Below are positions 19,919 through 60,404 of a stretch of 64,000 nt of DNA, piece after piece. Position numbers and translations under genes: made by a program. The notes beneath the pieces are model-generated. The model did not search any database, was not told the origin of the DNA, and saw only the letters and a program-made list of their open reading frames with translations. Origin of the DNA: Alphaproteobacteria bacterium (GTDB lineage: Bacteria; Pseudomonadota; Alphaproteobacteria; CAISOG01); contig JBILMH010000003.1 in NCBI GenBank assembly GCA_044375625.1, forward strand, positions 1,907-65,906, given 5' to 3'. Position 1 is the stretch's first letter. Each line of letters begins with the position of its first letter.

Positions 19919-19986
19919 GAAATTCTGTGCGGGTTTCGTAAACCGTGCTAACATCCGCATAATTTAACCTTACGCCCAAAAGGTCG

Positions 19987-22900
19987 GTGATGCGTCGTTG
20001 TCTGTTTGCGTTATTCCTTATAACTGTTTGGCCAGCATTGGTGATGGCACAAGACCTTGGGTCTGAGACAGAGAATGAGGGCGCAACGCAAACAAAGGAA
20101 TTGCGGATTTTGCGGGTGACGCCTGATGGTGAGGATGTGGAGCCAGGGCGGCAGATTGTTTTGCAATTCAACCGCCCTGTTGTGCCAATTGGCAGTATGG
20201 AGCGATCCAGTGCCGATATCCCCATTGAGATTGAGCCGAAATTGAACTGTCAATGGCGGTGGCTGAACACCTCTGCTTTGTCATGCAACCTGAATGACAA
20301 TGATACCATGAAGCAGGCAACGCTGTATCGCCTGGTCATGAAGCCAGGCATCAAAGCAGAAGATGGGCGTACGATTGCTGAGGCGTTTACCCATGAGTTT
20401 GTAACAAAACGTCCCGATATTGATTATGTCCGTATTCAAAAATGGCTGGCACCTGGCACCCCTGTAATCCGGGCGGTCTTTAACCAATCGGTCACCCAGA
20501 AATCGGTTGAAGCCAGCCTGGTGATTGGTCAGGAAAAGAATCCGACCGCCAAGACCTATGCGCTTAAGGTTGAAGTAGACCCAGAGGAAACAGAACCGCC
20601 AAGCTATCTTCCCCTGCCGGGCACTAAGATATGGGCATTCTTTGGCGCACAAAAAGCTCAAAAAAGTGATGAGGATCTGCGCAAATCGGGCGCTGAGGAG
20701 GCGCGGCGGGTTTGGTTAATCACGCCGAAAAAAGAGCTGCCGTTGGATACATCCATGAATCTAAGGATCAGACCAGGTCTGATTTCGGCTATGGGGTCAG
20801 AGCAGGGGATTGCTGATCGGTCTGCATTAAGCTTTCAAACCTTCCCAGCCTTCGCGTTTTTGGGCGTTCAATGTGTCTCAAACGCGGGGGACAAGCTTCT
20901 TTTCGAGTCTAAGAAAAGTCAGACGGGTCTTTGCAACCCCATGGCGCCCATTTCTTTGGTATTCAGCAGTCCTGTTTTGCGTTCAGAAATTCGCAAGAAC
21001 GCCCGCATAATATTAAATGAAAACGGCAAAGCTGGATCCATGAGTTTGGACGATTTATGGGCAGAAAACAATTATTCCCGATTAAATGGTGAACATGAAT
21101 TGGGCGAAACCTACGCCATCAATCTTCCCTATGGTCTTAAGGCGGCGGCCGAATACACGGTTAAAAGTACGTCACTGGAAAGGGGCTTTTTTGAAAAAAT
21201 CTGGCGGTGGATTAGGGCGCTGTTTGTTAAGGGTATCGATACAGAAATTAAGGATGAATTTGATCGTAAGCTGCTGAATCCTATTGATGTAATTTTTAGA
21301 ACCGATCATCGGTTGCCGAATTTTGAAATTGTCCACAATACCGCGGTGTTGGAAAAACAAATCGACAGTGAGGTGCCGCTGTACGTCAACAATTTGACCA
21401 AGACTAGCTTTTCCTATCGCATGGTGACGGCTGATGGCGCCAAAACAGGACTAACAGCGACCCAGGCTGTTCCCGAAGTTCAGGATAAGCAGTTTGCCAT
21501 TCCCTTTAATGTTCGCCAAATGCTGAACAACAAAAGTGGGGCGGTTTTTGGCACGCTTAGCACCGAACCAATAGTAAGCAAATATCCTGGCGATCATCAG
21601 CTGTTTGCCCAGGTGACGCCCTATCAACTGCACCTAAAGCTGGGGCATTTTAACAGTGCTTTGTGGGTTGCGGATATGGCGACTGGTCAACCAGTTGCCA
21701 ACGCAAAGGTCACGATTTACAGGGACAAAATTTCTGAAATCAGCGCGGGTCAGCCGCCCTTAGCTCAATCAACAACCGATGCCAATGGGGTGGCGATGCT
21801 GGATGGCACGGAAAAGCTGGATCCGTCACTTAATCTGGCCAGAAGCTATCGCACAAAGGATGAATCCCTATTTGTGCGCGTACAAAAAGACGGTGAGATT
21901 GCCATCCTGCCCGTTCATTCGATGTTTGTTATCGATTCGTATCGTTCCGTTGGGGAAAGTGTTTATGCCCAAAATCGCAAAATCCAGGGGCATATGGTTA
22001 CTTGGGGCACCACGGCGCAGGGGGTTTATCGCGCCGGCGATACGATCCAGTACAAATTGTATGTGCGTAACCAGAACAATCGTACCTTGGTACCCGCCCC
22101 CCGATCGGGCTATACCTTAGAAATTCTTGATCCCACCGACAACAAGGTTTTTGAAAAACAGGCAATAACCTTGGGGGAATTTGGTGATTATGCGGGCGAA
22201 TTTCCGATTCCTAAGCAGGGTGCTGTTGGGTGGTATCAATTCCGCCTTTCAGCCGATTTTTCTGATCCAAAAACCAAGGATGCTAAGCATGCCGAAGATA
22301 AGAAAAACAATGCCGGCAATGAAGACGAAGAAGACCAGGATCAAAACAGCGACAAATTCACCTGGTACCCGCTGCGCGTGCTGGTCAGCGATTTTACCCC
22401 GTCGACATTTCGGGTAACCAATCAGATTAACGGCGATTTGTTCCGTTATGGACAGGATGTTGAGGTCGGTACCCAGGCAAAATTGCACTCTGGCGGCGCT
22501 TATCCCGACGCCAACATGAGCGTGACAGCGGTTTTGGAAGGCAAGCCCTTTGCCTCCAAAAACCCTGTGGCCAAGGATTTTACCTTTGACAGTTACGAAG
22601 GGGGGCAAAGCCAAAAACAGCTGGTGCAAAAAATTGCCCGCGTCGATAGCAAGGGTGAAAACACCCTGTCCTTCACCCTGCCCAAGGAATCGATCTATTT
22701 CGGCCGATTGATGATTGAAAGCGCGGTGCAGGATGATCGGGGCAAAAATGTTGCCGCCCAATCCTATGCCGACTATGCGGGGGTGGATCGATTTGTTGGC
22801 TTAAAAATTGCCGATTGGATTGTGACAGCGGGCAAACCCACTTTGATTGATTATCTGGTTGTGGATGAGCGGGGCAATCCCGCTGCTGGCACGGCGGTGG

Positions 22901-25900
22901 ATATTGCGATTGAGCGTCAAGAAACCAAGGCGGCAAAGGTTAAGGGGGCGGGCAATGCCTATGTCACCGAATATAACAACGAATGGGTAGCGGTTAGCAG
23001 CTGTAAGGGGCAATCCCGCCTGCAATCCAACAGCTGTGACTTTGTGCCCAAGGATCCAGGCTATTATCGCGCAACCGCCAGCATAAAGGATAGTAACGGT
23101 AATGAGCATAAAACCCAGATCAGCCTGTATGTGGTTGGCCAGGGGCATGTGCTGTGGAACGAGTCGAACGACTATTCCCTGGAGGTTGTGCCCGAAAAAC
23201 CAACCTATAAGGTCGGGGATAGGGCGCGTTACCTAATCAAAAACCCCTATCCAGGCGCCAAGGCACTGGTGACGATTGAGCGCTATGGGGTGCTGGATCA
23301 TTTTGTGCAAACCCTGGAAGGCAGCACGCCGGTTATCGAGTTTGAGGTGAAGCCCGATTATATCCCTGGTTTTTACCTGTCGGTGGTCGTTTTTTCACCC
23401 CGTGTTGATAAACCTATTGAAAATCAGGTGGATTTAGGCAAACCATCGTTCCGCATGGGCTATGTAACTGTGCCGATTCAAGATCCTTATAAAGAGGTGT
23501 TGGTGACCGCCAAAACCGATCGGGAGGTTTATAAACCACGGGAAAAAGTTAAGCTATCGCTGCATGCAGAGCCCAGAACAAAAGATACCAAGGATCCCAT
23601 TCAGCTGGCCGTGGCGGTGGTCGATGAATCGGTGTTTGACCTGGTGGCGGGTGGCAAAAGCTATTACGACCCGTATCAGGGGTTTTACAAGTTGCAAGGG
23701 TTGGATTTACGCAATTACAGCCTGCTAACCCGTTTGATTGGCCGTCAGAAATTTGAGAAAAAGGGCGCTAACCCAGGCGGTGACGGCGGATCCGATCTGG
23801 CCATGCGCAACCAATTCAAATTTGTCAGCTATTGGAACTCATCCATCACCCTGGATAATCAGGGCAACGCCCAGGTGGAATTTGAGGTGCCCGACAATCT
23901 GACCGGCTGGCGGGTGCTGGCCATGGCGGTCACCAAAACCGATCGCATGGGGTTGGGCGATGCCAACTTTAAGGTCAATCGCCCGACGGAGGTGCGCCCC
24001 GTCATGCCGAACCAAGTTACGGAGGGCGACAGCTTTAAGGCTGGCTTTAGCGTGATGAATCGCACCGATAAGAAACGCGAGCTTGAGGTTGTCCTTAGTG
24101 CATCAGGCGATGTTGACCTGAAGGATGGGGCGGCAGCCACCCTGACCCAGAAAGTGACGCTGGATCCCTATAAACGCACCACGGTTTGGATGCCGTTGCA
24201 GGTCAAAGCCCTCGATGCCAGCCGTGAGGCAGAAACGGGTGCCATCAATTTCCGTGCAACCGCGCGCGATGCGCTGGATGGTGACGGCGTTGAGCATAAA
24301 TTGGTGATTCACAAACGGCGTTCGTTGGAAACCGCCGCCAACTATGGCACCACCACCGACAACAGGTTCGAAGAATCGATTAAATTTCCTGATAAAATTC
24401 ATGGGGATATTGGCAATGTTAGCATTGTGGCCGCTCCCTCTGTGATTGGCAATTTGGAGGGCGCCTTTAAGTATCTGCGTGACTATCCCTATGAATGTTG
24501 GGAACAAAAATTAACCAAGGCGGTGATGGCATCCCATTTTGTTAATCTGCGCGCCTATATGCCAAAGGATTTTGCATGGACGGACGCCGAAAAACTGCCC
24601 GACGATCTGTTAAAACAGGCCGCCAATTTTCAGGCGCCCAATGGCGGCATGGCCTATTTCATTCCGCAAGATCAGTATGTTGACCCTTATTTAAGTGCCT
24701 ATACAGCCTTGGCCTTTAACTGGCTGAAGAAAAGCGGATACAGCATTCCCAAAGAAGTGGAATCAAAGCTGCACAAGTACCTGGCCAATTTCCTAAAACA
24801 GGATAGCTATCCCGATTTCTATAATCAGGATATGGCCTCAACCGTTCGCGCGGTAGCCTTGGCCGCCCTGGCAGAGAACAACGCGGCGGGTAACACCAAC
24901 ATTACCCTGGCGGATTTGGAGCGCTATCGGCCGCATGTTGCCCGCATGAGCCTGTTTGGCAAGACCTATTTTGTTCAGGCGGCAATGCGCGTTCAAGGCG
25001 GCGACAAATATGTGACAGAGGTCACCAATCTGATTCTGTCGCACGCCAATCAGTCTGGCGGCAAATTCACCTTTAGCGAGCAGTTGGATGACAGCTACAG
25101 CCGCATTCTTGCCAGCCCTCTGCGGGAAAATTGCGCCATTCTGTCAACCCTGACGGCGCTGAAAGATCACAAGACCGCCAAGCCATTGGTTGAGGATATT
25201 CCCTTTAAGCTGGTGCGGATGATTACCCAGGCACGCGGCAGCCGCACCCATTGGGAAAATACCCAGGAAAATGTGTTCTGCATGAACGGCCTGGTGGACT
25301 ATGCCCGCGCCTATGAAAATGTTGCTCCCAACATGCAGGTGACGGTCAAATTGGATGAAAAGCCCTTTGGCGAAACCAAATTTGCCGATGTTCGGGATGC
25401 CCCCGCCACCTTTGTCCGCAACATCGAAAAGGCCGATGTGGGCAGAAGCGCTAAGGCCAGTATTGAACGGCAGGGGGATGGCCGCCTGTACTATGCCACC
25501 CGCCTAAGCTATGCCCCGCTTGCTGAGCACGCCACCTATACCAATGCGGGTATAGGAATTAGGCGGGAATACAGTGTTGAGCGTGATGGCAAATGGCAAT
25601 TGTTGAAATCCCCATTCACCATCAAACAGTCCGAGTTGGTGCGGGTTGACCTGTACCTCTCGTTGCCGGCCGCCCGCAATTTTGTGGTTGTCGATGACCC
25701 CGTTCCAGGCGGGTTAGAGCCTGTGAACCGTGATTTGGCCACCGCCTCAATCGTTGATGCCGATAAGGGGGAATTCCAGGCCGCGGGCGGATCCTGGTGG
25801 TTCCAATATTCGGACTGGATTGGCTATAACCTGTCGCGGTGGAGCTTTTATCACCAGGAATTGCGCCATGATGCCGTGCGGTTCTATTCGGATTACTTAG

Positions 25901-26052
25901 ATCCCGGCAATTACCATCTGTCCTACACCGCGCAGGCGATTGCGCCGGGCAGCTTTGTGGTCATGCCCACCAATGCCGTTGAAATGTATGACCCCGATGT
26001 GTATGGCAAGGGGGTGGTGGACAGATTGGATATCGATGGCGGGCAGCCGTAA
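19987..26052 (+). CDS. Alpha-2-macroglobulin family protein (thioester-type, YfhM-like), 2021 aa
   Basis: Signal peptide, MG-domain-like repeats, CxEQ thioester-like motif (YPYECWEQK). The conserved pairing with pbpC immediately downstream supports the call. Confidence 0.8.
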   Translation: MMRRCLFALFLITVWPALVMAQDLGSETENEGATQTKELRILRVTPDGEDVEPGRQIVLQFNRPVVPIGSMERSSADIPIEIEPKLNCQWRWLNTSALSCNLNDNDTMKQATLYRLVMKPGIKAEDGRTIAEAFTHEFVTKRPDIDYVRIQKWLAPGTPVIRAVFNQSVTQKSVEASLVIGQEKNPTAKTYALKVEVDPEETEPPSYLPLPGTKIWAFFGAQKAQKSDEDLRKSGAEEARRVWLITPKKELPLDTSMNLRIRPGLISAMGSEQGIADRSALSFQTFPAFAFLGVQCVSNAGDKLLFESKKSQTGLCNPMAPISLVFSSPVLRSEIRKNARIILNENGKAGSMSLDDLWAENNYSRLNGEHELGETYAINLPYGLKAAAEYTVKSTSLERGFFEKIWRWIRALFVKGIDTEIKDEFDRKLLNPIDVIFRTDHRLPNFEIVHNTAVLEKQIDSEVPLYVNNLTKTSFSYRMVTADGAKTGLTATQAVPEVQDKQFAIPFNVRQMLNNKSGAVFGTLSTEPIVSKYPGDHQLFAQVTPYQLHLKLGHFNSALWVADMATGQPVANAKVTIYRDKISEISAGQPPLAQSTTDANGVAMLDGTEKLDPSLNLARSYRTKDESLFVRVQKDGEIAILPVHSMFVIDSYRSVGESVYAQNRKIQGHMVTWGTTAQGVYRAGDTIQYKLYVRNQNNRTLVPAPRSGYTLEILDPTDNKVFEKQAITLGEFGDYAGEFPIPKQGAVGWYQFRLSADFSDPKTKDAKHAEDKKNNAGNEDEEDQDQNSDKFTWYPLRVLVSDFTPSTFRVTNQINGDLFRYGQDVEVGTQAKLHSGGAYPDANMSVTAVLEGKPFASKNPVAKDFTFDSYEGGQSQKQLVQKIARVDSKGENTLSFTLPKESIYFGRLMIESAVQDDRGKNVAAQSYADYAGVDRFVGLKIADWIVTAGKPTLIDYLVVDERGNPAAGTAVDIAIERQETKAAKVKGAGNAYVTEYNNEWVAVSSCKGQSRLQSNSCDFVPKDPGYYRATASIKDSNGNEHKTQISLYVVGQGHVLWNESNDYSLEVVPEKPTYKVGDRARYLIKNPYPGAKALVTIERYGVLDHFVQTLEGSTPVIEFEVKPDYIPGFYLSVVVFSPRVDKPIENQVDLGKPSFRMGYVTVPIQDPYKEVLVTAKTDREVYKPREKVKLSLHAEPRTKDTKDPIQLAVAVVDESVFDLVAGGKSYYDPYQGFYKLQGLDLRNYSLLTRLIGRQKFEKKGANPGGDGGSDLAMRNQFKFVSYWNSSITLDNQGNAQVEFEVPDNLTGWRVLAMAVTKTDRMGLGDANFKVNRPTEVRPVMPNQVTEGDSFKAGFSVMNRTDKKRELEVVLSASGDVDLKDGAAATLTQKVTLDPYKRTTVWMPLQVKALDASREAETGAINFRATARDALDGDGVEHKLVIHKRRSLETAANYGTTTDNRFEESIKFPDKIHGDIGNVSIVAAPSVIGNLEGAFKYLRDYPYECWEQKLTKAVMASHFVNLRAYMPKDFAWTDAEKLPDDLLKQAANFQAPNGGMAYFIPQDQYVDPYLSAYTALAFNWLKKSGYSIPKEVESKLHKYLANFLKQDSYPDFYNQDMASTVRAVALAALAENNAAGNTNITLADLERYRPHVARMSLFGKTYFVQAAMRVQGGDKYVTEVTNLILSHANQSGGKFTFSEQLDDSYSRILASPLRENCAILSTLTALKDHKTAKPLVEDIPFKLVRMITQARGSRTHWENTQENVFCMNGLVDYARAYENVAPNMQVTVKLDEKPFGETKFADVRDAPATFVRNIEKADVGRSAKASIERQGDGRLYYATRLSYAPLAEHATYTNAGIGIRREYSVERDGKWQLLKSPFTIKQSELVRVDLYLSLPAARNFVVVDDPVPGGLEPVNRDLATASIVDADKGEFQAAGGSWWFQYSDWIGYNLSRWSFYHQELRHDAVRFYSDYLDPGNYHLSYTAQAIAPGSFVVMPTNAVEMYDPDVYGKGVVDRLDIDGGQP

Positions 26053-26055
26053 GGC

Positions 26056-28263
26056 ATGGCCAACATGCGAAAAACCCTTCGCTGGTGCGCGCGCTGTCTG
26101 CTCATCCTGCTGCTGATTTTTATCGGCAAAACGGCGATCGATTATGCGTCGCCCTATCGTGATTTTCACAGCGTTCGATCCGATGCCAACGCCATCCAGA
26201 TTTTGGATCGCCATGGCCAACCCCTGACCTTTACCTATCAAAACCGCTGGAATACCAGTGATGCTGTCGCCCTGCATGAGATGCCAGAGCTGTTGCAAAA
26301 TGCCTTTATCTTGTCTGAGGATAAGCGGTTTTATCAACACAGCGGCGTCGATTGGGTCGCGCGGGGCAGCGCGCTGTGGCACCGATGGATACAGGGTTAT
26401 GCCGCCCGTGGTGCCAGCACGATTACGGAGCAGGTGGTGCGGATGATTCATCCCCGCCCCCGCACCTTTTGGTCAAAATGGCTAGAAGGTCTTGAGGCGT
26501 TATCGTTGGAGATGCGTGTCAGCAAGCCCGCCATCCTGGAATTCTATCTGAACCAGGTGCCCTATGCCGCCAACCGCCGCGGGGTGGTGCAGGCCGCCCG
26601 ATATTATTTCAACCGCGACATCAACACCCTGAATACGAAAGAGATTTTGGCGCTGGCCGTATTGGTGCGCGCGCCATCCAAATTTGACCTGTTCGACGGC
26701 AAAATTCAGATTGAGGAATCGATCAAAAGGCTTGCCGAAACCATGGTGCAGGCGGGACAAATGGATGAAGCCCTTTTGCAGGGGTTAAGCCGCTATGACT
26801 TGGCGTTGGAAAGCGCCAGCCTGTCGGTGCAGGCCTTTCATTTTGTCGATTATATTCGTGACCATACGGGCGCATCGCATGGCGGCGGCCAGGCCAAAAT
26901 GGTCACCACCCTGGATGCATCGTTGCAGCAGTTTGTGCAAAGCCTGCTGGAAAGCCGATTGCAGGCCTTGGCATCACGCCAAATAACCCAGGCGGCCGCG
27001 TTGGTGGTTGATCGGCAAACGCATGAGATTTTGGCCTGGGTATCGGTGGGTAAAGAGTGCAAGCCCAGCAACAATCAGGCGCCAGGGTGTAAGATCGATA
27101 TGGTGACGGTGCCGCGTCAGCCTGGATCCGCCCTGAAACCCTTTTTGTACGCCGCCGCTTTGGAAAAGGGCTGGACACCGGCGACTGTTATTGAGGATGC
27201 GCCATTTTCCGACATGGTGGGGCGGGGCATCCATCATTTTCATAACTACAGCAACACCTATTACGGCAGGGTTACCCTGCGCACCGCCCTGGGCAACTCG
27301 CTGAACATTCCCGCCCTGCACGCCATCAATTTTGTCACGCCCACCAGCTATCTGGTGACCCTACACGCCCTGGGGTTTTCCACCCTTAGGAAGGGTGCCG
27401 ATTTCTATGATGACGGGCTGGCGCTGGGCAATGGAGAGGTCAGCCTGCTGGAATTGGTGCAGGCCTACAGCGCCCTGGCCAATCGCGGGGTATTTCAACC
27501 GCTAACCATGACCTTTTACCGCGATGATCCGGTCATAAGCCGCCGCGTTTTTTCTGAGGAGGTCAGCTCGCTAATCGGCAACATCCTGTCCGACCCATGG
27601 GCGCGCATGTTGGAATTCGGGCGCAGCAGTGTTTTGAACCTGCCCACCCAAACCGCCTTTAAGACTGGCACCTCAACCGATTATCGGGACGCCTGGGCGA
27701 TTGGCTATAACCATCGTTATGTCGCGGGTATATGGATGGGCAATGCCGATTACACCCCCACCGATGGCATTACCGGATCCTTGGGGCCATCCCTGGCCTT
27801 GCGCGGGATTTTCAGCGAATTGAATCAGCATGGTGAAACCGCCCCCCTGTATTTAAGCCCCAAATTGGTGACCAGGGATGTTTGCATCGATGTGACAGAA
27901 ATGGATCAGGATGCCCCCGATTGTTTGGCGCGCACCGAATATTTCCTGGCCGATTCCCTGCCGATTCAGGGTGACAGCCGCCGCCCAACCGCCAGCATTC
28001 AGATTGCCAGACCCGCCAACAACCTGGAAATGGCCTTTGACCCACGCATACCGCCCGAAAAACAGGCCTTTGAAATGCGGTTGAGTGGGGTGTTGGATAC
28101 GGATCAGGTGGAATGGACGGTTAACGACCAACGCTTTGCCAAAACCATGGGCGCCAAGTTTTTGTGGCCAATGACCCGTGGCCGCCACAGCGTCACCGCT
28201 ACCGTTTGGCGCAATGGCCAACCCCTAATCACCCTTGATCGCCAGAATTTTTGGGTGAAGTGA
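26056..28263 (+). CDS. pbpC: Penicillin-binding protein 1C (transglycosylase/transpeptidase)
   Basis: N-terminal TM, GT51 motifs (EDKRFYQHSGVD, ARGASTITEQV), transpeptidase domain and a PBP1C C-terminal domain. 735 aa. Confidence 0.85.
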   Translation: MANMRKTLRWCARCLLILLLIFIGKTAIDYASPYRDFHSVRSDANAIQILDRHGQPLTFTYQNRWNTSDAVALHEMPELLQNAFILSEDKRFYQHSGVDWVARGSALWHRWIQGYAARGASTITEQVVRMIHPRPRTFWSKWLEGLEALSLEMRVSKPAILEFYLNQVPYAANRRGVVQAARYYFNRDINTLNTKEILALAVLVRAPSKFDLFDGKIQIEESIKRLAETMVQAGQMDEALLQGLSRYDLALESASLSVQAFHFVDYIRDHTGASHGGGQAKMVTTLDASLQQFVQSLLESRLQALASRQITQAAALVVDRQTHEILAWVSVGKECKPSNNQAPGCKIDMVTVPRQPGSALKPFLYAAALEKGWTPATVIEDAPFSDMVGRGIHHFHNYSNTYYGRVTLRTALGNSLNIPALHAINFVTPTSYLVTLHALGFSTLRKGADFYDDGLALGNGEVSLLELVQAYSALANRGVFQPLTMTFYRDDPVISRRVFSEEVSSLIGNILSDPWARMLEFGRSSVLNLPTQTAFKTGTSTDYRDAWAIGYNHRYVAGIWMGNADYTPTDGITGSLGPSLALRGIFSELNQHGETAPLYLSPKLVTRDVCIDVTEMDQDAPDCLARTEYFLADSLPIQGDSRRPTASIQIARPANNLEMAFDPRIPPEKQAFEMRLSGVLDTDQVEWTVNDQRFAKTMGAKFLWPMTRGRHSVTATVWRNGQPLITLDRQNFWVK

Positions 28264-28367
28264 TCGGGGATGGGGAGGTGTTTAGTCCTACGATGAAGAG
28301 GTTCGGGGGGCGGCGGGGGCGATGCGGCTATGGGCAAATCCCCGCATTGTTCCCCCTATCATTCTCC

Positions 28368-28424
28368 CTTGGCTTCCTCTGGGCTTTCCCCCTGGGCTTT
28401 CCCTTGGGCTTCCCCTTTGGCCTA
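28368..28424. repeat. Four tandem ~12-bp GC-rich repeats (GGGCTTYCCCYT) in a non-coding spacer
   Basis: ggcttcctct gggctttccccct gggctttccctt gggcttcccctt read directly. Confidence 0.7.
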
Positions 28425-28576
28425 GCTGTTTCTAGGGTTTGTTTTGTCATGGTTTTTGTGCGGGTTTCGTACACTTGCCGAATCGATAACGTCGGTTTAC
28501 CCTGATGGGGATAGGTTGGAAGATTGGGTGAGGCCTGGGTGTTCGAAAAGCTGGCGGGCGTAGCGTCAAAACGGCC

Positions 28577-28595
28577 GAGGGGGGCAACCCCCCTC
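28577..28595. other. Perfect 8-bp G/C stem hairpin with 3-nt loop (GAGGGGGG-CAA-CCCCCCTC)
   Basis: Read directly. No U-tract follows, so it is not a canonical terminator. Confidence 0.6.
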
Positions 28596-28676
28596 CGTGC
28601 GTTCGAATCTCCCCGCTTTCCTCCATCACCCGCCCGCGATACCCAAAACGCTGATGGGACAATTAGGAAGAAAGAG

Positions 28677-28895
28677 ATGGCTAATGATGCCAATATAACT
28701 CGCCAGAACCACTATGTTCCTGAGTTGTATCAAAAACAGTTCTTAATTCACGCCAGCATTTGTGGGAACATAAAAGACATGTATGCGGAAAAAAGTGAGC
28801 GGCTGACGGATCAAGAGGCAGTGACGGCTGCCAATAATGTACTGAGGTTTTGCGAAAAAGTGGTCGAAATCAGAAGCAGGGAGGAAAAGATATAA
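28677..28895 (+). CDS. Small hypothetical protein (72 aa), first gene of AT-rich cassette
   Basis: ATG 28677 with AGGAAG 6 nt upstream. Stop TAA overlaps the next ATG (TAATG). AT-rich relative to its surroundings. Confidence 0.5.
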   Translation: MANDANITRQNHYVPELYQKQFLIHASICGNIKDMYAEKSERLTDQEAVTAANNVLRFCEKVVEIRSREEKI

Positions 28896-29605
28896 TGCCT
28901 ATATTAGTTGCCGATTGTCCCAGATGCGGCTCTTCGCATATGACTTTTGATGTACAGAGCTATAACGATTTAGGAACCGAATACGGGTGGCAGCGCTGGT
29001 GTGAACTTTTTTCGGTTTGCAGAAAGTGTCATGCGGCAACTAATTTTATTGTTGCACAAAGACCTGATAGTGATAGCGGGTTACATGCGTATCGCGATGC
29101 CAAAAAAATCATGGAACTCAAAAATTCTATTAATGATGATTTTCGAGTTGAACGTTTTGTAAGCTTAAGAGATCAATCAAAATATTCGCCACCTGAATTT
29201 GTTCCAGAAAATATAAAATCTATTTTTGTTGAAGGAACTGTTTGCTTGTCAGTAGAATGTTGGAACGCTGCTGGTACTATGTTTCGCCAATGCTTAGATT
29301 TGGCAACTAAACCAATGTTGCCCAAAGAAGAAACGGAAGGTTTAAACGATCATAAACGTCGTAACTTAGCCCCAAGGTTAACTTGGCTATTTGAAAATAA
29401 AATACTGCCGGATAATTTAAAAAGTTTAGCAGATTGTATCAGAGAAGATGGCAATGATGCTGCACATGATGGAACATTAGAAAAAACTGACTGTATGGAT
29501 TTGCTCGATTTTACTGCAGCACTACTTGAGCGTATTTACACAGAACCGGAAAAAATTAAATTGGCAGAGCAAAGAAGATTAGAGCGACGAGCAAAATCCA
29601 ATTGA
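28895..29605 (+). CDS. Zn-ribbon plus HEPN-like (DUF4145-like) protein, 236 aa; candidate defence/toxin component
   Basis: ATG 28895 with GGGAGG 10 nt upstream. N-terminal CPRC...CRKC zinc-ribbon. C-terminal IREDGNDAAHDG resembles the R-x(n)-N-x-x-x-H HEPN-type motif seen in DUF4145 proteins. AT-rich. Confidence 0.55.
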   Translation: MPILVADCPRCGSSHMTFDVQSYNDLGTEYGWQRWCELFSVCRKCHAATNFIVAQRPDSDSGLHAYRDAKKIMELKNSINDDFRVERFVSLRDQSKYSPPEFVPENIKSIFVEGTVCLSVECWNAAGTMFRQCLDLATKPMLPKEETEGLNDHKRRNLAPRLTWLFENKILPDNLKSLADCIREDGNDAAHDGTLEKTDCMDLLDFTAALLERIYTEPEKIKLAEQRRLERRAKSN

Positions 29606-29785
29606 ATAATAAGTGGCCTAGGCTCAGGATAGGTTCGCATAGCGTCTACAACACCCCCCCCCACCCCCCCCAATTTTCCCCCCATCCCTCACCAAAATGG
29701 TGTAGACTGTGCGCAGGGGGCGGGGCTAGGGTAGGCGACAGGTTGCCCTGCTTGGCCTTTGGAATTGGCAATAGGAGTCAGGAAA

Positions 29786-57850: not shown

Positions 57851-58459
57851 TTACATGCCAAAGGGATACGCCTTGTTTTGGGTAATGCCACTGGCACGCA
57901 CGGGTTGCAACGCCTTGGCATAGGCCGCCAGGATATTCAGGGCAAAGTCGGCGCGATTGCGAATCGCCTGATCCTCTGGGCTGCTGGCATCCTGGCTGTT
58001 CAGCACATTGCCCACCTGGCGCACGATAAGATGTTCGGGGATATAGCAAATATGGTTGTTTTTATAGCTGCTGCTGCGCAATTCCGCGATCGGATAGGCG
58101 CCGCTAATGCCCGCCGATACCGATACCAGCAGGGCGGGCTTGTGACCCAATTCGGCGCTGCTGGCAAACAAAAAGAAATTCTTCAGCGCGGCGGGCGCCA
58201 TGCCGCCCCATTCTGGCGCAACAATGACAAAGGCATCGGCGGATTGCAGCATGGGCACCATCTTGCCCCAGGCCTTACCGCTGTTGCTGGTGGCATCCTG
58301 ATGTTGGCCATCCCACAGGGGCAGGGGGGTTTGCGCCAAATCAATCAGGCTGTTGGTGCTGTCGGGGTGCAGCTGTGACCAATGTTGGCCCAGATAGCGG
58401 CCAACCTTAAGGGATTCTGAGTCTAAACGATGACTGCCCGTCACGATGGTAAGATGCAT
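57851..58459 (-). CDS. NADPH-dependent FMN reductase (flavodoxin-like fold)
   Basis: N-terminal IVTGSHR...S.S and FVIVAPEWGGMAPAALKNF are typical of the PF03358 family. Confidence 0.7.
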   Translation of the reverse strand: MHLTIVTGSHRLDSESLKVGRYLGQHWSQLHPDSTNSLIDLAQTPLPLWDGQHQDATSNSGKAWGKMVPMLQSADAFVIVAPEWGGMAPAALKNFFLFASSAELGHKPALLVSVSAGISGAYPIAELRSSSYKNNHICYIPEHLIVRQVGNVLNSQDASSPEDQAIRNRADFALNILAAYAKALQPVRASGITQNKAYPFGM

Positions 58460-58669
58460 GGCAACGCCTTCATAAAAAAATTGCTACTGCATTAAGCCAT
58501 AAGTCAATCGTCACCCCGCGGCAAGAGCGAAGGGGGGGGGGCGTGGACAGATAATCGATTGTTTTGTGTTTCATGCAAATGTATGCAATAGTTGAGTAAT
58601 ATTTTAACAAATTCACTTTATATTTGAATGTGATTGGTTTGACTTTTGTCTAATTTTTAAGGGTCTTTT

Positions 58670-59749
58670 ATGGATATCGATGTTTTTGTTGAAACAGTAA
58701 AATTGGGATCCGTGCGAGTTTTTAATTGCCGTGAGGTTACGAGACAATTAAAAAAAGACAGCAAAACAGAGTTTGTTTTTAAAATACCTGTTCTTAATGA
58801 TTGTATCATTGTTAAGCAGCCTAATTTTTATGAAAAATCAAAAAACGACCCGGGAAAACCCAGCGATAAGCTGCTTACAAAGCTGTATTATCCCTATGAA
58901 GACAATATATTAAATGGCGGCATGACCTTTGAAATAGCTGAAAGTAGCCTAGAGGAAATTGTGGGGGTTTTATGTAATAACAGTAAGCAGTATTGTGAAA
59001 TTATTAAGCATGATCAGAATATTATGTCGTCGTTTCTTGATGTTCCGACGGTAGACCCATTTATTCTTAGTGAAAACTTTCGAAGAAAAAGAATAAATGT
59101 GCCAGAAGACTATTTTAATGTGTCAAAAGATGAGTGGCGTGAAATCTATGAATTTGTTTCAAAGCAGTTTATGCCTATTTTAAAATTTGCCTATCTAGAT
59201 AAAAAAATAACATCAAACCAATCCGCAAGACTGGTTGATTTATTATGGAATGGGCGACTTTGTGATGAAACGGCCAGCATCATGAAGCCGTTAAATGTCA
59301 ATATAAATGATGTTGAAGATGTTTTGTTTTCCTGGAAGGGTATCATTTATTATATGTATATTTTCAGATCTAACTCTGAAAAAGCCGCTAAAATGACCAA
59401 ATGGTTTTCAAATGTTGGAAACAATCATTCTTATGTAAGCAATAATGTTTTTGAAAAAAAATTGTATTTTGCATCTAAAATCAAAAAAACCACTCGAAAA
59501 ATTAAAGATAAAATTGACCTTTACAATGAAGCTTATAGCAATCTTTTTGTGAAGCGTCAGAGCTCAAAACAATTTATTCAGTTTTTGGCGGACAGCCGAG
59601 AGATTTTTTGGGATATGTCTGCCGCCGTCAGTGAGATAACGACACTGTACCAAATCTGGTACAATTTCACCGCTCAGCATAAAAACCAACGGATCACTCC
59701 CGCCCGTTTGGCCTATTTCTTTGACCTGCTGGAATACAACCAGCTTTAA
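58670..59749 (+). CDS. AT-rich orphan hypothetical protein (359 aa)
   Basis: Strongly AT-rich ORF with an AT-rich leader. No TM. No family recognised. Confidence 0.5.
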   Translation: MDIDVFVETVKLGSVRVFNCREVTRQLKKDSKTEFVFKIPVLNDCIIVKQPNFYEKSKNDPGKPSDKLLTKLYYPYEDNILNGGMTFEIAESSLEEIVGVLCNNSKQYCEIIKHDQNIMSSFLDVPTVDPFILSENFRRKRINVPEDYFNVSKDEWREIYEFVSKQFMPILKFAYLDKKITSNQSARLVDLLWNGRLCDETASIMKPLNVNINDVEDVLFSWKGIIYYMYIFRSNSEKAAKMTKWFSNVGNNHSYVSNNVFEKKLYFASKIKKTTRKIKDKIDLYNEAYSNLFVKRQSSKQFIQFLADSREIFWDMSAAVSEITTLYQIWYNFTAQHKNQRITPARLAYFFDLLEYNQL

Positions 59750-59795
59750 TAACTAAAAAAATTATAATTTATTGCTGTGTATTGTAAGAATATTT

Positions 59796-60251
59796 TTAGC
59801 GTGTGTTTATGTGGTTGCTTGCTGAACTAAGTGCATTTTTTTTAATGCGGTAAAGGCTTTGAGACAGGCGTTCAACTGGTAGCTTTCCATTTGAAGTAAA
59901 GGCATCACAGAAAACTTTTGCTCCTATGCTTGTTTTGTTTTTTATGTCATAAGAAAAATCAGCTGAAATAAGATTAACAAAGTTATTTGCAAGTTCTTTA
60001 TTGTCAATTCCTGTTTGGCTAAGTTGCTCTAAAATATCAATCATGACTAAAATTTGAAGCTCTTTAAGATTTGTTATCGCTTCTACTACGATCTCACGGC
60101 TTTTAGAAGATTCGCATGCTTTTTGAGCTATAACTGGCAAATTATCGATCAGGATTTCAAAAGTTAACTCAGCAATTATTTCGTCGACGCGTGCGGTCTG
60201 ATGCAACTGATCACGCAAAACCGCTTTCAAATCGGGGGGCATAGAATCCAA
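59796..60251 (-). CDS. AT-rich orphan hypothetical protein (151 aa), convergent partner
   Basis: AT-rich ORF convergent with 58670-59749. No family recognised. Confidence 0.4.
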   Translation of the reverse strand: MDSMPPDLKAVLRDQLHQTARVDEIIAELTFEILIDNLPVIAQKACESSKSREIVVEAITNLKELQILVMIDILEQLSQTGIDNKELANNFVNLISADFSYDIKNKTSIGAKVFCDAFTSNGKLPVERLSQSLYRIKKNALSSASNHINTR

Positions 60252-60404
60252 GGCAATCCTCTTAAATTGCCCTCAATTCTATAATTAATGGTTGGCCGCT
60301 GTCAATAAGTCCTTATCTATAATTGCGCACTCTTTAAAAGTACAATGTTTCCCATTGCAACCAAACCATCTGGCGTGACGGAAGGACGTGGCCGCAGTTG
60401 TGAT

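Follow-up and report, generated by a model that had tools for sequence, protein, structure and literature searches.

The closest described system to the locus analysed here is PD-T7-4 of E. coli UMB1727, which has a zinc finger-HEPN architecture (Vassallo et al., 2022; PMC9519451). It has since been characterised as RAZR, a ring-activated zinc-finger RNase (Nature 2026; PMC13017515; PDB 9Y9C, 9Y6U). RAZR-Ec forms higher-order oligomers, is activated by a portal or Gp77 ring, cleaves single-stranded RNA and causes abortive infection, and its defence is lost with R146A or H154A (PMC13017515). DS-38 is another validated E. coli defence protein composed of a zinc finger and a HEPN domain, and its HEPN domain alone aligns well with PD-T7-4 (DefensePredictor preprint, 10.1101/2025.01.08.631726), which shows that several zinc-finger-HEPN lineages defend against phage. 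Fusions of DUF4145 (PF13643) to "Zinc Ribbon" domains and its association with defence loci had already been listed in a survey that described the Rx4-6H motif of DUF4145 as "mostly conserved (80%)" (Anantharaman et al., 2013; PMC3710099).

In the window, the whole stretch of 64,000 nucleotides that was analysed, a 1-kb AT-rich piece of foreign DNA is inserted at a variable hotspot. Since this insertion carries a single gene of the zinc-finger-HEPN RNase type and a lineage-specific small ORF, it probably represents a known kind of phage-defence gene rather than a new two-gene system. The architecture, which an earlier note on this DNA had regarded as novel, is that of PD-T7-4/RAZR. The features of the locus are as follows.

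28454–28625, plus strand: host element, conserved and tRNA-like in its 3′ part (hairpin 28577–28596, GTTCGAATC, ...CCTCCA)
28652–29652, no strand assigned: horizontally acquired cassette, 1,001 bp, 39.7% GC, between host ...GATACCCAAAACGC and CAACACCCCC...
28677–28895, plus strand: ORF1, small ORF of 72 aa with a TAATG overlap with ORF2
28895–29605, plus strand: ORF2, 236 aa, zinc ribbon plus DUF4145/HEPN, predicted RNase, distantly RAZR/PD-T7-4-like
28895–29059, plus strand: N-terminal Cys4 zinc ribbon of ORF2, aa 1–55 (C8, C11, C42, C45)
29207–29482, plus strand: helical core of the HEPN (DUF4145) domain, about aa 105–196
29441–29467, plus strand: putative catalytic motif R183-E-D-G-N-D-A-A-H191 (R-x7-H)
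29653–29683, no strand assigned: right junction, CAACACCCCC + poly-C tract + AATTTTCCCCCC, the point at which all close relatives become homologous again

The G+C content falls to 39.7% across the cassette and 38.3% in ORF2, against 55–62% in the flanks, so that the sharp drop first judged by eye is real; GC3 is 27% in ORF2 vs 67–79% in pbpC, SOUL and mgtA. The insertion limits, 28652 and 29652, were set from an empty site in the sister-strain contigs L106 and L107, which reads ...AAAACGC-CTCACCACAT-CAACACCCCC... and whose flanks are 97.5% identical to the window. This site was located by a search with the SOUL protein; the metagenome relatives of pbpC (51–71% amino acid identity), tried for the same end, have no SOUL downstream. 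Moreover, positions 28745–29655 are 87% identical to L085, a contig of a 35% GC organism, the rest of which shares nothing with the window. Composition, the L085 match and the empty site thus support horizontal acquisition of the insertion proposed in the earlier note, which had also stated correctly that no integrase or transposase is present. The right end of the cassette in other hosts reads ...ACAACGCCYCGCC, which results in a CAAC(A/G)CC microhomology, and its left part is unlike that of its relatives. Because PD-T7-4-like genes are known from Vibrio integrons (preprint 10.1101/2024.07.02.601686), an integron gene cassette was considered; it was rejected, as inspection revealed neither a RYYYAAC nor a GTTRRRY attC core site at either junction.

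Analysis of ORF2 revealed a zinc ribbon followed by an all-helical HEPN fold. The DUF4145 match that had been anticipated for this protein was found in Pfam (PF13643, 38.5 bits vs a gathering cut-off of 23.1, E=1.3e-9), with the alignment spanning aa 116–207 of ORF2 and positions 5–87 of the 88-position profile; aa 197–235 form a long basic helix after the HEPN core. Both motifs pointed out earlier, CPRC...CRKC and IREDGNDAAH, are present, and no family-conserved residue is missing from the intact ORF2. The four cysteines are invariant in alignment A1 of the ORF2 family and occur in 104–115 of 119 diverse sequences, the remainder being mostly N-terminal gaps. The AF2 model of the ribbon is all-beta (strands 3–6, 16–29, 33–42 and 48–55). 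In the same 119 sequences H191 is found in 114, N187 and G186 in 110 each, and position 183 is occupied by R in 66 and by K in 41. The R183-x7-H191 spacing exceeds the canonical Rx4-6H and equals that of R146/H154 in RAZR-Ec.

RAZR and ORF2 are alike in being single genes on mobile DNA (219 and 236 aa) whose products have a linker between an N-terminal Cys4 zinc ribbon and a C-terminal DUF4145/HEPN domain; the likeness of the ribbons consists in the cysteine pattern and the beta model. In both, the putative catalytic residues are spaced as R-x7-H, and a PxPxxP[ED]NxKS...AAxx[FL]RxCL motif where the linker meets helix 1 is likewise shared. The PADLOC PD-T7-4 model matched ORF2 weakly (20 bits, E=9.2e-5) and 22 of 25 ORF2 relatives, at best with E=9e-8. 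This match exists at the profile level only, with no pairwise sequence similarity: phmmer searches of PDB sequences, 9y9c_OA included, with ORF2 and the A1 profile returned nothing, and one relative matched 9y9c_OA at E=0.12 at best. Furthermore, the linker of ORF2 (about 49 aa vs 14 aa) is about 35 residues longer and contains one more predicted helix and one more strand, and it shares the distal PxPxxP[ED]NxKS motif with that of RAZR; the long basic C-terminal helix and, in ORF2's lineage, the small coupled upstream ORF are further differences. DS-38, compared by its description, has the same two-domain composition. Many DUF4145 proteins are fused to restriction endonuclease/helicase modules or lie in R-M operons, whereas ORF2 stands alone and has no R-M genes in its vicinity. 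The HEPN-MNT type II/VII toxin-antitoxin systems differ in their MNT nucleotidyltransferase partner, no gene for which was found in the cassette or its flanks, and in HEPN toxins that have no zinc ribbon.

ORF2 belongs to a clade of proteins of about 233 aa that comprises about 246 clusters at E<=1e-30 in many phyla and has no pairwise similarity to RAZR-Ec. Its members go under the label of DUF4145 domain-containing proteins and occur in recognised phage defence hotspots; one of them, 44% identical, is encoded by E. coli LF82 and by phage Cartapus. No conserved neighbour of ORF2 relatives was found, with no neighbour family in more than 5 of 80 loci; the family is thus distributed as stand-alone genes with no obligate partner.

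The coordinates of both ORFs, their TAATG overlap and the AGGAAG and GGGAGG sequences upstream of their starts were confirmed. The earlier note had proposed a two-gene toxin-antitoxin or Abi module. Spelled out, ORF1 would be a small helical antitoxin or inhibitor, kept stoichiometric by the TAATG coupling, and would restrain the HEPN RNase until infection. Several results are in keeping with this reading. Upstream antitoxins are common for HEPN toxins (PMC3710099), and the overlap is also kept in L085. The C-terminal 49 codons of ORF1 (28746–28892), over which alone it is conserved with relatives, are 75.5% identical at the amino acid level to a 62-aa ORF of L085. Substitutions in this core are of the coding type (10/4/14 per codon position vs L085, and 13/4/27 vs the contig L097 over the first 34 codons; chi-square p=1e-4). 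In the window and in L085 alike, the frame of ORF1 is open and the other two are closed, and the single-sequence AF2 model is a two-helix hairpin, uninformative at its modest confidence (pLDDT 66). On the other side, a search of 5.8 billion proteins returned no homologue of ORF1 but ORF1 itself. It is restricted to its own species and the two closest relatives, L085 and L097, being absent beside ORF2 relatives at 80 of 80 genome loci and in L098, L086 and L087, whose ORF2 is 61–69% identical. The N-terminus varies among copies, with frame-shifting indels. In L097, the small ORF has an in-frame stop 17 codons ahead of ORF2, which uncouples it while ORF2 stays intact, and this would be unexpected were ORF2 in need of neutralising. 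ORF1 is not an MNT-type antitoxin either, nor is it conserved with the ORF2 family, and Pfam, PADLOC and PHROG gave no match above threshold. We therefore consider the two-gene module unlikely. ORF1 is probably a translated, lineage-specific small ORF in the cassette leader, which may tune ORF2 expression by translational coupling and, judged from the loci compared, is not a required partner of ORF2. Its segment NHYVPELYQKQF, which recalls the N-terminal motif of DUF4238, is not kept in L085 or L097, and ORF1 was rejected as a DUF4238 fragment, with no Pfam DUF4238 match even at E<=1.

ORF2 might instead be a nucleic-acid-binding protein of the zinc-ribbon type that serves mobile elements as a regulator or accessory factor, and its HEPN-like helical domain would then be catalytically inactive. 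The label "DNA binding protein" given to its relatives by PHROG 1305 and an Stx phage RefSeq record, the residue at 183 not being strictly Arg, and the incomplete conservation of Rx4-6H in DUF4145 cited above are in line with this idea, which we nevertheless regard as very improbable. Somewhat less improbable, though still unlikely, is that the cassette came into this host recently as a passenger and is unexpressed or non-functional there. The GC3 of 27% vs about 70% would then point to an acquisition in the very recent past and to codons poorly adapted to the host, and both the divergent left part and the failure to find a candidate sigma-70 promoter upstream of ORF1 would fit, although the consensus scan sees only close matches to one consensus. 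The intactness of ORF2, the good Shine-Dalgarno sequences at both ORFs and the identical ORF2 gene on contigs of at least four independent samples argue against such a passenger.

The PD-T7-4 profile matches and the relatives in defence hotspots make a defence role, as first suggested for this cassette, the best reading: ORF2 rather likely acts on its own against phages, as an abortive-infection effector belonging to the zinc-finger-HEPN class of which RAZR is the type. By analogy with RAZR, ORF2 would be held inactive as oligomers until phage infection, with the Cys4 ribbon as sensor and oligomerisation module and the DUF4145/HEPN domain as a latent RNase whose active site would be R/K183...H191. 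Scaffolding by a phage structural protein (the portal or another large ring in the case of RAZR) would turn ORF2 into an active assembly that cuts cellular and phage single-stranded RNA, stops translation and aborts infection. More speculatively, and with a low probability in our view, the clade could be a separate zinc-ribbon-HEPN immune lineage, whose long linker and basic C-terminal helix allow another phage cue or assembly than in RAZR, and the window's sub-lineage could have recruited a new coupled small protein (core IHASICGNIK.MYA...NN.LRFC) as a regulator or inhibitor of the RNase, a nascent two-component variant. The practical value of the locus is modest. As a natural case made clear by an empty site and two alternative cargos, it illustrates how a 1-kb cassette with one probable defence gene moves between unrelated bacteria, and it draws attention to a large, conserved and barely annotated DUF4145 clade with the RAZR architecture. 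The E. coli LF82/phage Cartapus member makes it directly testable whether ring-scaffold activation is general to zinc-finger-HEPN proteins or specific to RAZR-Ec.

The cassette, which brought no recombinase with it, entered a hypervariable hotspot directly 3′ of a conserved tRNA-like element. This element (172 bp), the left edge of the hotspot, is 88% identical to L103/L104. A functional tRNA or tmRNA at 28500–28628 was rejected: ARAGORN gave no match, the Rfam match to tRNA-Sec (28545–28621) was weak at 15.6 bits vs a gathering score of 47, and the fold was no better than shuffles (z-score −1.1). It is described here as a conserved tRNA-like element. A tRNA lies within about 350 nt upstream at just 1 of 60 family loci, and tRNA adjacency was dismissed as a general trait of the ORF2 family. 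The 12-nt tandem repeats (28365–28421) and the perfect hairpin that the earlier note had placed in a 410-bp spacer are both present; the spacer itself is a composite of the tail (28264–28458) of a separate A2M-pbpC insertion, the 172-bp element and 26 nt of host DNA. The split direct repeats (28511–28572 and 29629–29652) proposed as cassette boundaries amount to two shared 7-mers and are not significant, as about 20% of shuffled upstream sequences yield at least one match of this kind. They are also misplaced relative to the true limits, the left copy lying within the conserved host element and the right within the conserved 3′ tail of the cassette, and were rejected as its ends. On the right, the homology of L103, L104, L106 and L107 to the window begins at 29664–29666, and the same hotspot in sister strains carries other small low-GC cargos.

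Analysis of the AT-rich cassette between pbpC and the SOUL and mgtA genes revealed a G+C content of 33–47% from about 28600 to 29650 against 55–62% in both flanks, and GC3 was 27% in ORF2 (total GC 38.3%) against 67% in pbpC, 79% in SOUL and 74% in mgtA. The G+C drop, which the earlier note had judged by eye, was thus borne out, and so were its two ORFs with good Shine-Dalgarno sequences overlapping by TAATG. The spacer 5′ of ORF1 also contains the tandem repeats and the perfect hairpin described there, namely 4.8 copies of a 12-nt repeat (28365-28421) and GAGGGGGG-CAA-CCCCCCTC. The features are as follows.

28454-28625, conserved non-coding element, 172 bp, with a tRNA-like 3′ part
28677-28895, + strand, ORF1, 72 aa, ATG start, AGGAAG ahead of the start
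28895-29605, + strand, ORF2, 236 aa, GGGAGG ahead of the start

ORF2 is a zinc-ribbon plus DUF4145/HEPN protein. Residues 116-207 match DUF4145 in Pfam (38.5 bits, gathering score 23.1, E=1.3e-9), and in an alignment of ORF2 with 24 homologues (49–85% identity) C8, C11, C42, C45 and H191 are invariant. When 118 cluster representatives at 34–49% identity were aligned with ORF2 (119 sequences), the zinc-ribbon cysteines were found in 104–115 sequences, with N-terminal gaps explaining most absences, while H191 was conserved in 114, N187 and G186 in 110 each, R131 in 117 and E113 in 118; position 183 is R in 66 of the 119 and K in 41. The AlphaFold2 model (pLDDT 89.2) is divided as follows.

ORF2 aa 3-55, beta-strand ribbon
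ORF2 about aa 56-104, linker
ORF2 aa 105-196, helical core
ORF2 aa 197-235, long C-terminal helix

The Pfam match, the conserved residues and the helical core of the model together showed that the HEPN/DUF4145 assignment of the earlier note was right. The architecture itself, which had been thought novel, is already known. The sole PADLOC match of ORF2 below 1e-3 was PD-T7-4 (E=9.2e-5, aa 8-211 against profile positions 16-174 of 211), whose profile was matched by 22 of 25 aligned family members (best E=9e-8). PD-T7-4 is a single-gene 'Zn finger-HEPN' system of E. coli UMB1727 (Vassallo et al. 2022, PMC9519451, Tables S1/S2), since renamed RAZR, ring-activated zinc-finger RNase (2026 Nature, PMC13017515). 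RAZR is an abortive-infection system that combines a Cys4 zinc ribbon at the N-terminus with a C-terminal DUF4145 domain acting as HEPN RNase; its defence needs R146 and H154. It assembles as a 24-mer around rings of phage portal proteins or of SECphi27 Gp77, cuts single-stranded RNA and stops translation (PMC13017515). 'Zinc Ribbon' was already listed among the fusion partners of DUF4145 by Anantharaman et al. 2013 (PMC3710099). A second validated Zn-finger-HEPN protein, DS-38, aligns with PD-T7-4 in the HEPN domain only (DefensePredictor preprint), and several lineages of this class therefore exist.

The R-x7-H spacing is equal in the two proteins (R183/H191 in ORF2, R146/H154 in RAZR), and both share the motif PxPxxP[ED]NxKSx[FY]xE...AAxx[FL]RxCL, which reads PPEFVPENIKSIFVEG...NAAGTMFRQCL at ORF2 aa 99-134, whereas the linker of ORF2 is ~35 residues longer. 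The E. coli protein RAZR-Ec is represented among PDB sequences by chain 9y9c_OA (219 aa), and neither ORF2 (phmmer) nor the family profile matched any PDB sequence, this chain included, at E<=10. A plasmid homologue 35% identical to ORF2 gave a weak alignment with the chain (E=0.12); it extends from the distal part of the linker into HEPN helix 1, and the shared motif was recognised from it. The relationship is distant, and we place ORF2 in the Zn-finger-HEPN (RAZR-like) class as a remote member without regarding it as a RAZR orthologue. What is still new is the wide divergence of this large clade from RAZR-Ec, together with a small ORF confined to this lineage.

ORF2 belongs to a family that is widely distributed, mobile and made up of stand-alone genes. 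In an exhaustive search of 1.84 billion cluster representatives with the family profile, 246 clusters passed E<=1e-30, with 706 at the looser cut-off of 1e-10 and 1,897 at 1e-3. Among GTDB representative genomes 176 relatives were found, from which 80 loci were kept. These belong to Pseudomonadota, Verrucomicrobiota, Omnitrophota, Planctomycetota, Nitrospirota and other phyla; the gene lies more than 5 GC points under its flanks in 49 of them (median difference −8 points), and when all ORFs lying up to 3 kb away were clustered, every neighbour family was confined to 5 or fewer of the 80 loci. Homologues occur on plasmids of Burkholderia, Rhizobium, Pseudoalteromonas, Acinetobacter (7.5 kb) and Vibrio, and ORF2 matches PHROG 1305 from end to end (E=7e-37). 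The P2-like Escherichia phage Cartapus carries a 44%-identical homologue (L102, 162-860) in the interval from cos to the portal gene, and this cos-proximal site is where P2-like phages have their old/tin defence hotspot (Rousset et al. 2022, PMC9122126). Of 5,426 complete E. coli genomes, 43 have the Cartapus gene, LF82 among them (NC_011993.1, 2758544-2759242), which makes the Cartapus/LF82 protein a handy experimental stand-in for the clade. In an Stx phage, a 25%-identical relative adjoins a Ren-like exclusion gene and a RelE/ParE pair. These mobile and defence-hotspot contexts support a role in defence.

The earlier note had proposed a two-gene module in which ORF1 would suit an antitoxin or regulator. 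ORF1 does show signs of being real. The nearest relative of ORF2 (contig L085, 85% aa identity) is preceded by a 62-aa ORF ending in an identical TAATG, the last 49 residues of ORF1 are 75.5% identical to it, and its frame is open in both while the remaining two frames are closed. Substitutions by codon position number 10/4/14 against L085 and 13/4/27 against contig L097 (ORF2 83% identical; first 34 codons, chi-square p=1e-4), and the core of ORF1 therefore evolved as coding sequence. Other observations speak against its being a partner that ORF2 requires. In L097 an in-frame stop 17 codons ahead of ORF2 abolishes the overlap while ORF2 stays intact; the stretch of the cassette that holds the first 23 codons of ORF1, with its start codon and Shine-Dalgarno sequence, aligns poorly with L085 and L097, with frame-shifting indels; and no trace of a small ORF was found in three further contigs, L098, L086 and L087 (ORF2 61–69% identical). 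A counterpart of ORF1 was absent from all 80 loci, a search of 5.8 billion proteins returned only copies from its own species, and Pfam, PADLOC and PHROGs gave nothing above threshold. Its single-sequence AF2 model, a two-helix hairpin (pLDDT 66), is uninformative. ORF1 is thus dispensable for the ORF2 family; it is probably a real lineage-specific small ORF in the cassette leader and may regulate or inhibit in the lineage of the window. The observation holds up and is well explained by ORF2 being a remote addition to a defence class already known and lately characterised; it does not reveal a new two-gene system.

We consider it fairly likely that ORF2 acts as a latent defence RNase of the Zn-finger-HEPN class; the details of trigger, oligomers and cleavage are proposed with less confidence. 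The analysis establishes the architecture and fold, the conserved residues, the stand-alone distribution, the mobile and defence-hotspot settings, and the insertion with its hotspot; catalysis, trigger, oligomeric state, defence phenotype and any role of ORF1 are inferred. ORF2 would be a latent HEPN RNase kept inactive as oligomers by its zinc-ribbon domain. A multimeric phage protein might scaffold and activate it, much as RAZR is switched on by portal or Gp77 rings, and the active enzyme would cut single-stranded RNA, leading to translation arrest and aborted infection.

Close relatives of the host were located through a SOUL protein search. Two of them, L106 and L107, with flanks 97.5% identical to the window, have an empty site (...CCATCACCCGCCCGCGATACCAAAAACGC-CTCACCACAT-CAACACCCCCATCCTCTTAACCCCCCCCCAATTTTCCCCCC...). 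Comparison with the occupied site in the window (...CCATCACCCGCCCGCGATACCCAAAACGC-[28652...29652]-CAACACCCCCCCCCACCCCCCCCAATTTTCCCCCC...) confirmed the proposed insertion between pbpC and SOUL and therefore defines it as 1,001 bp (39.7% GC). The imperfect direct repeats suggested to bound it are not its boundaries, because the right copy lies inside the conserved 3′ tail of the cassette and the left inside the conserved host element, and a similar split 7+7 match arises in ~20% of shuffles. In L085 and L097 the right end reads ...ACAACGCCYCGCC, with CAAC(A/G)CC microhomology to the host site. A poly-C tract (CACCCCCCCC twice, 29652-29672) is found at the right junction, its length varying among the window, L103 and L106/L107.

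The window and L085 have in common only a 911-bp block (window 28745-29655, 87% identity); the L085 genome is an unrelated one, with ~35% GC and unrelated genes after the cassette copy. Upstream of that copy, ~160 nt away, ends a tRNA-Ser(GGA) gene (L085 1-72); it is cut by the contig end and was identified from its anticodon arm, variable arm and T arm. A nearby tRNA is no general trait of the family, as one was present within ~350 nt upstream in 1 of 60 loci.

The relatives L103 and L104 (88–92% identical to the window) keep the element 28454-28625, followed by a different 1.6-kb cargo of 41.5% GC.

L103 2621-4207, alternative cargo encoding 354-aa and 96-aa proteins

The 354-aa protein weakly matches the PADLOC candidate PDC-M32A (E=3e-6), and the 96-aa protein is HicA-like (24.1 bits, gathering score 27). 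L106 has a partial low-GC gene (1-650; 42.5%) on the left side of its empty site, with a weak DUF3800 match (22.1 bits, cut-off 21). Three close relatives therefore carry three different cargos in a hotspot that reaches from the conserved element to the poly-C/AATTTTCCCCCC site, and each of these low-GC cargos starts no more than 26 nt past the 3′ end of the element. The 3′ part of the element comprises a variable-arm-like hairpin, GTTCGAATC, an acceptor-like strand and CCTCCA. ARAGORN called no tRNA in it, Rfam gave a sub-threshold tRNA-Sec alignment at 28545-28621 (15.6 bits, gathering score 47) that has a UCA loop but lacks a D-arm, and the predicted fold of the element was no better than that of shuffled sequence (z = −1.1). 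It is 88% identical to its L103 counterpart, from which the core differs only by a 1-nt indel in the hairpin loop, and where the 5′ acceptor-like strand is shifted by one base, the 3′ strand has lost one to match. We regard the element as a putative decayed tRNA-like gene or att-like site marking the hotspot; it could be a decayed selC-like gene serving as attachment site.

On the other side of the element, the 8.5-kb alpha-2-macroglobulin and pbpC operon (19941-28458; GC 52.6%, host ~57%) is missing from L103/L104. A 15-bp direct repeat, TGTGCGGGTTTCGTA, flanks it in the window (19926-19940 and 28459-28473), and a single diverged copy is found in L103/L104; the operon was therefore either inserted or deleted in the relative by repeat recombination. 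A second low-GC patch (58400-60300; 32–36% in 700-bp windows) contains two ORFs with no Pfam or PADLOC match.

58670-59749, + strand, ORF of 359 aa
59796-60251, − strand, ORF of 151 aa

This patch may be another small foreign island.
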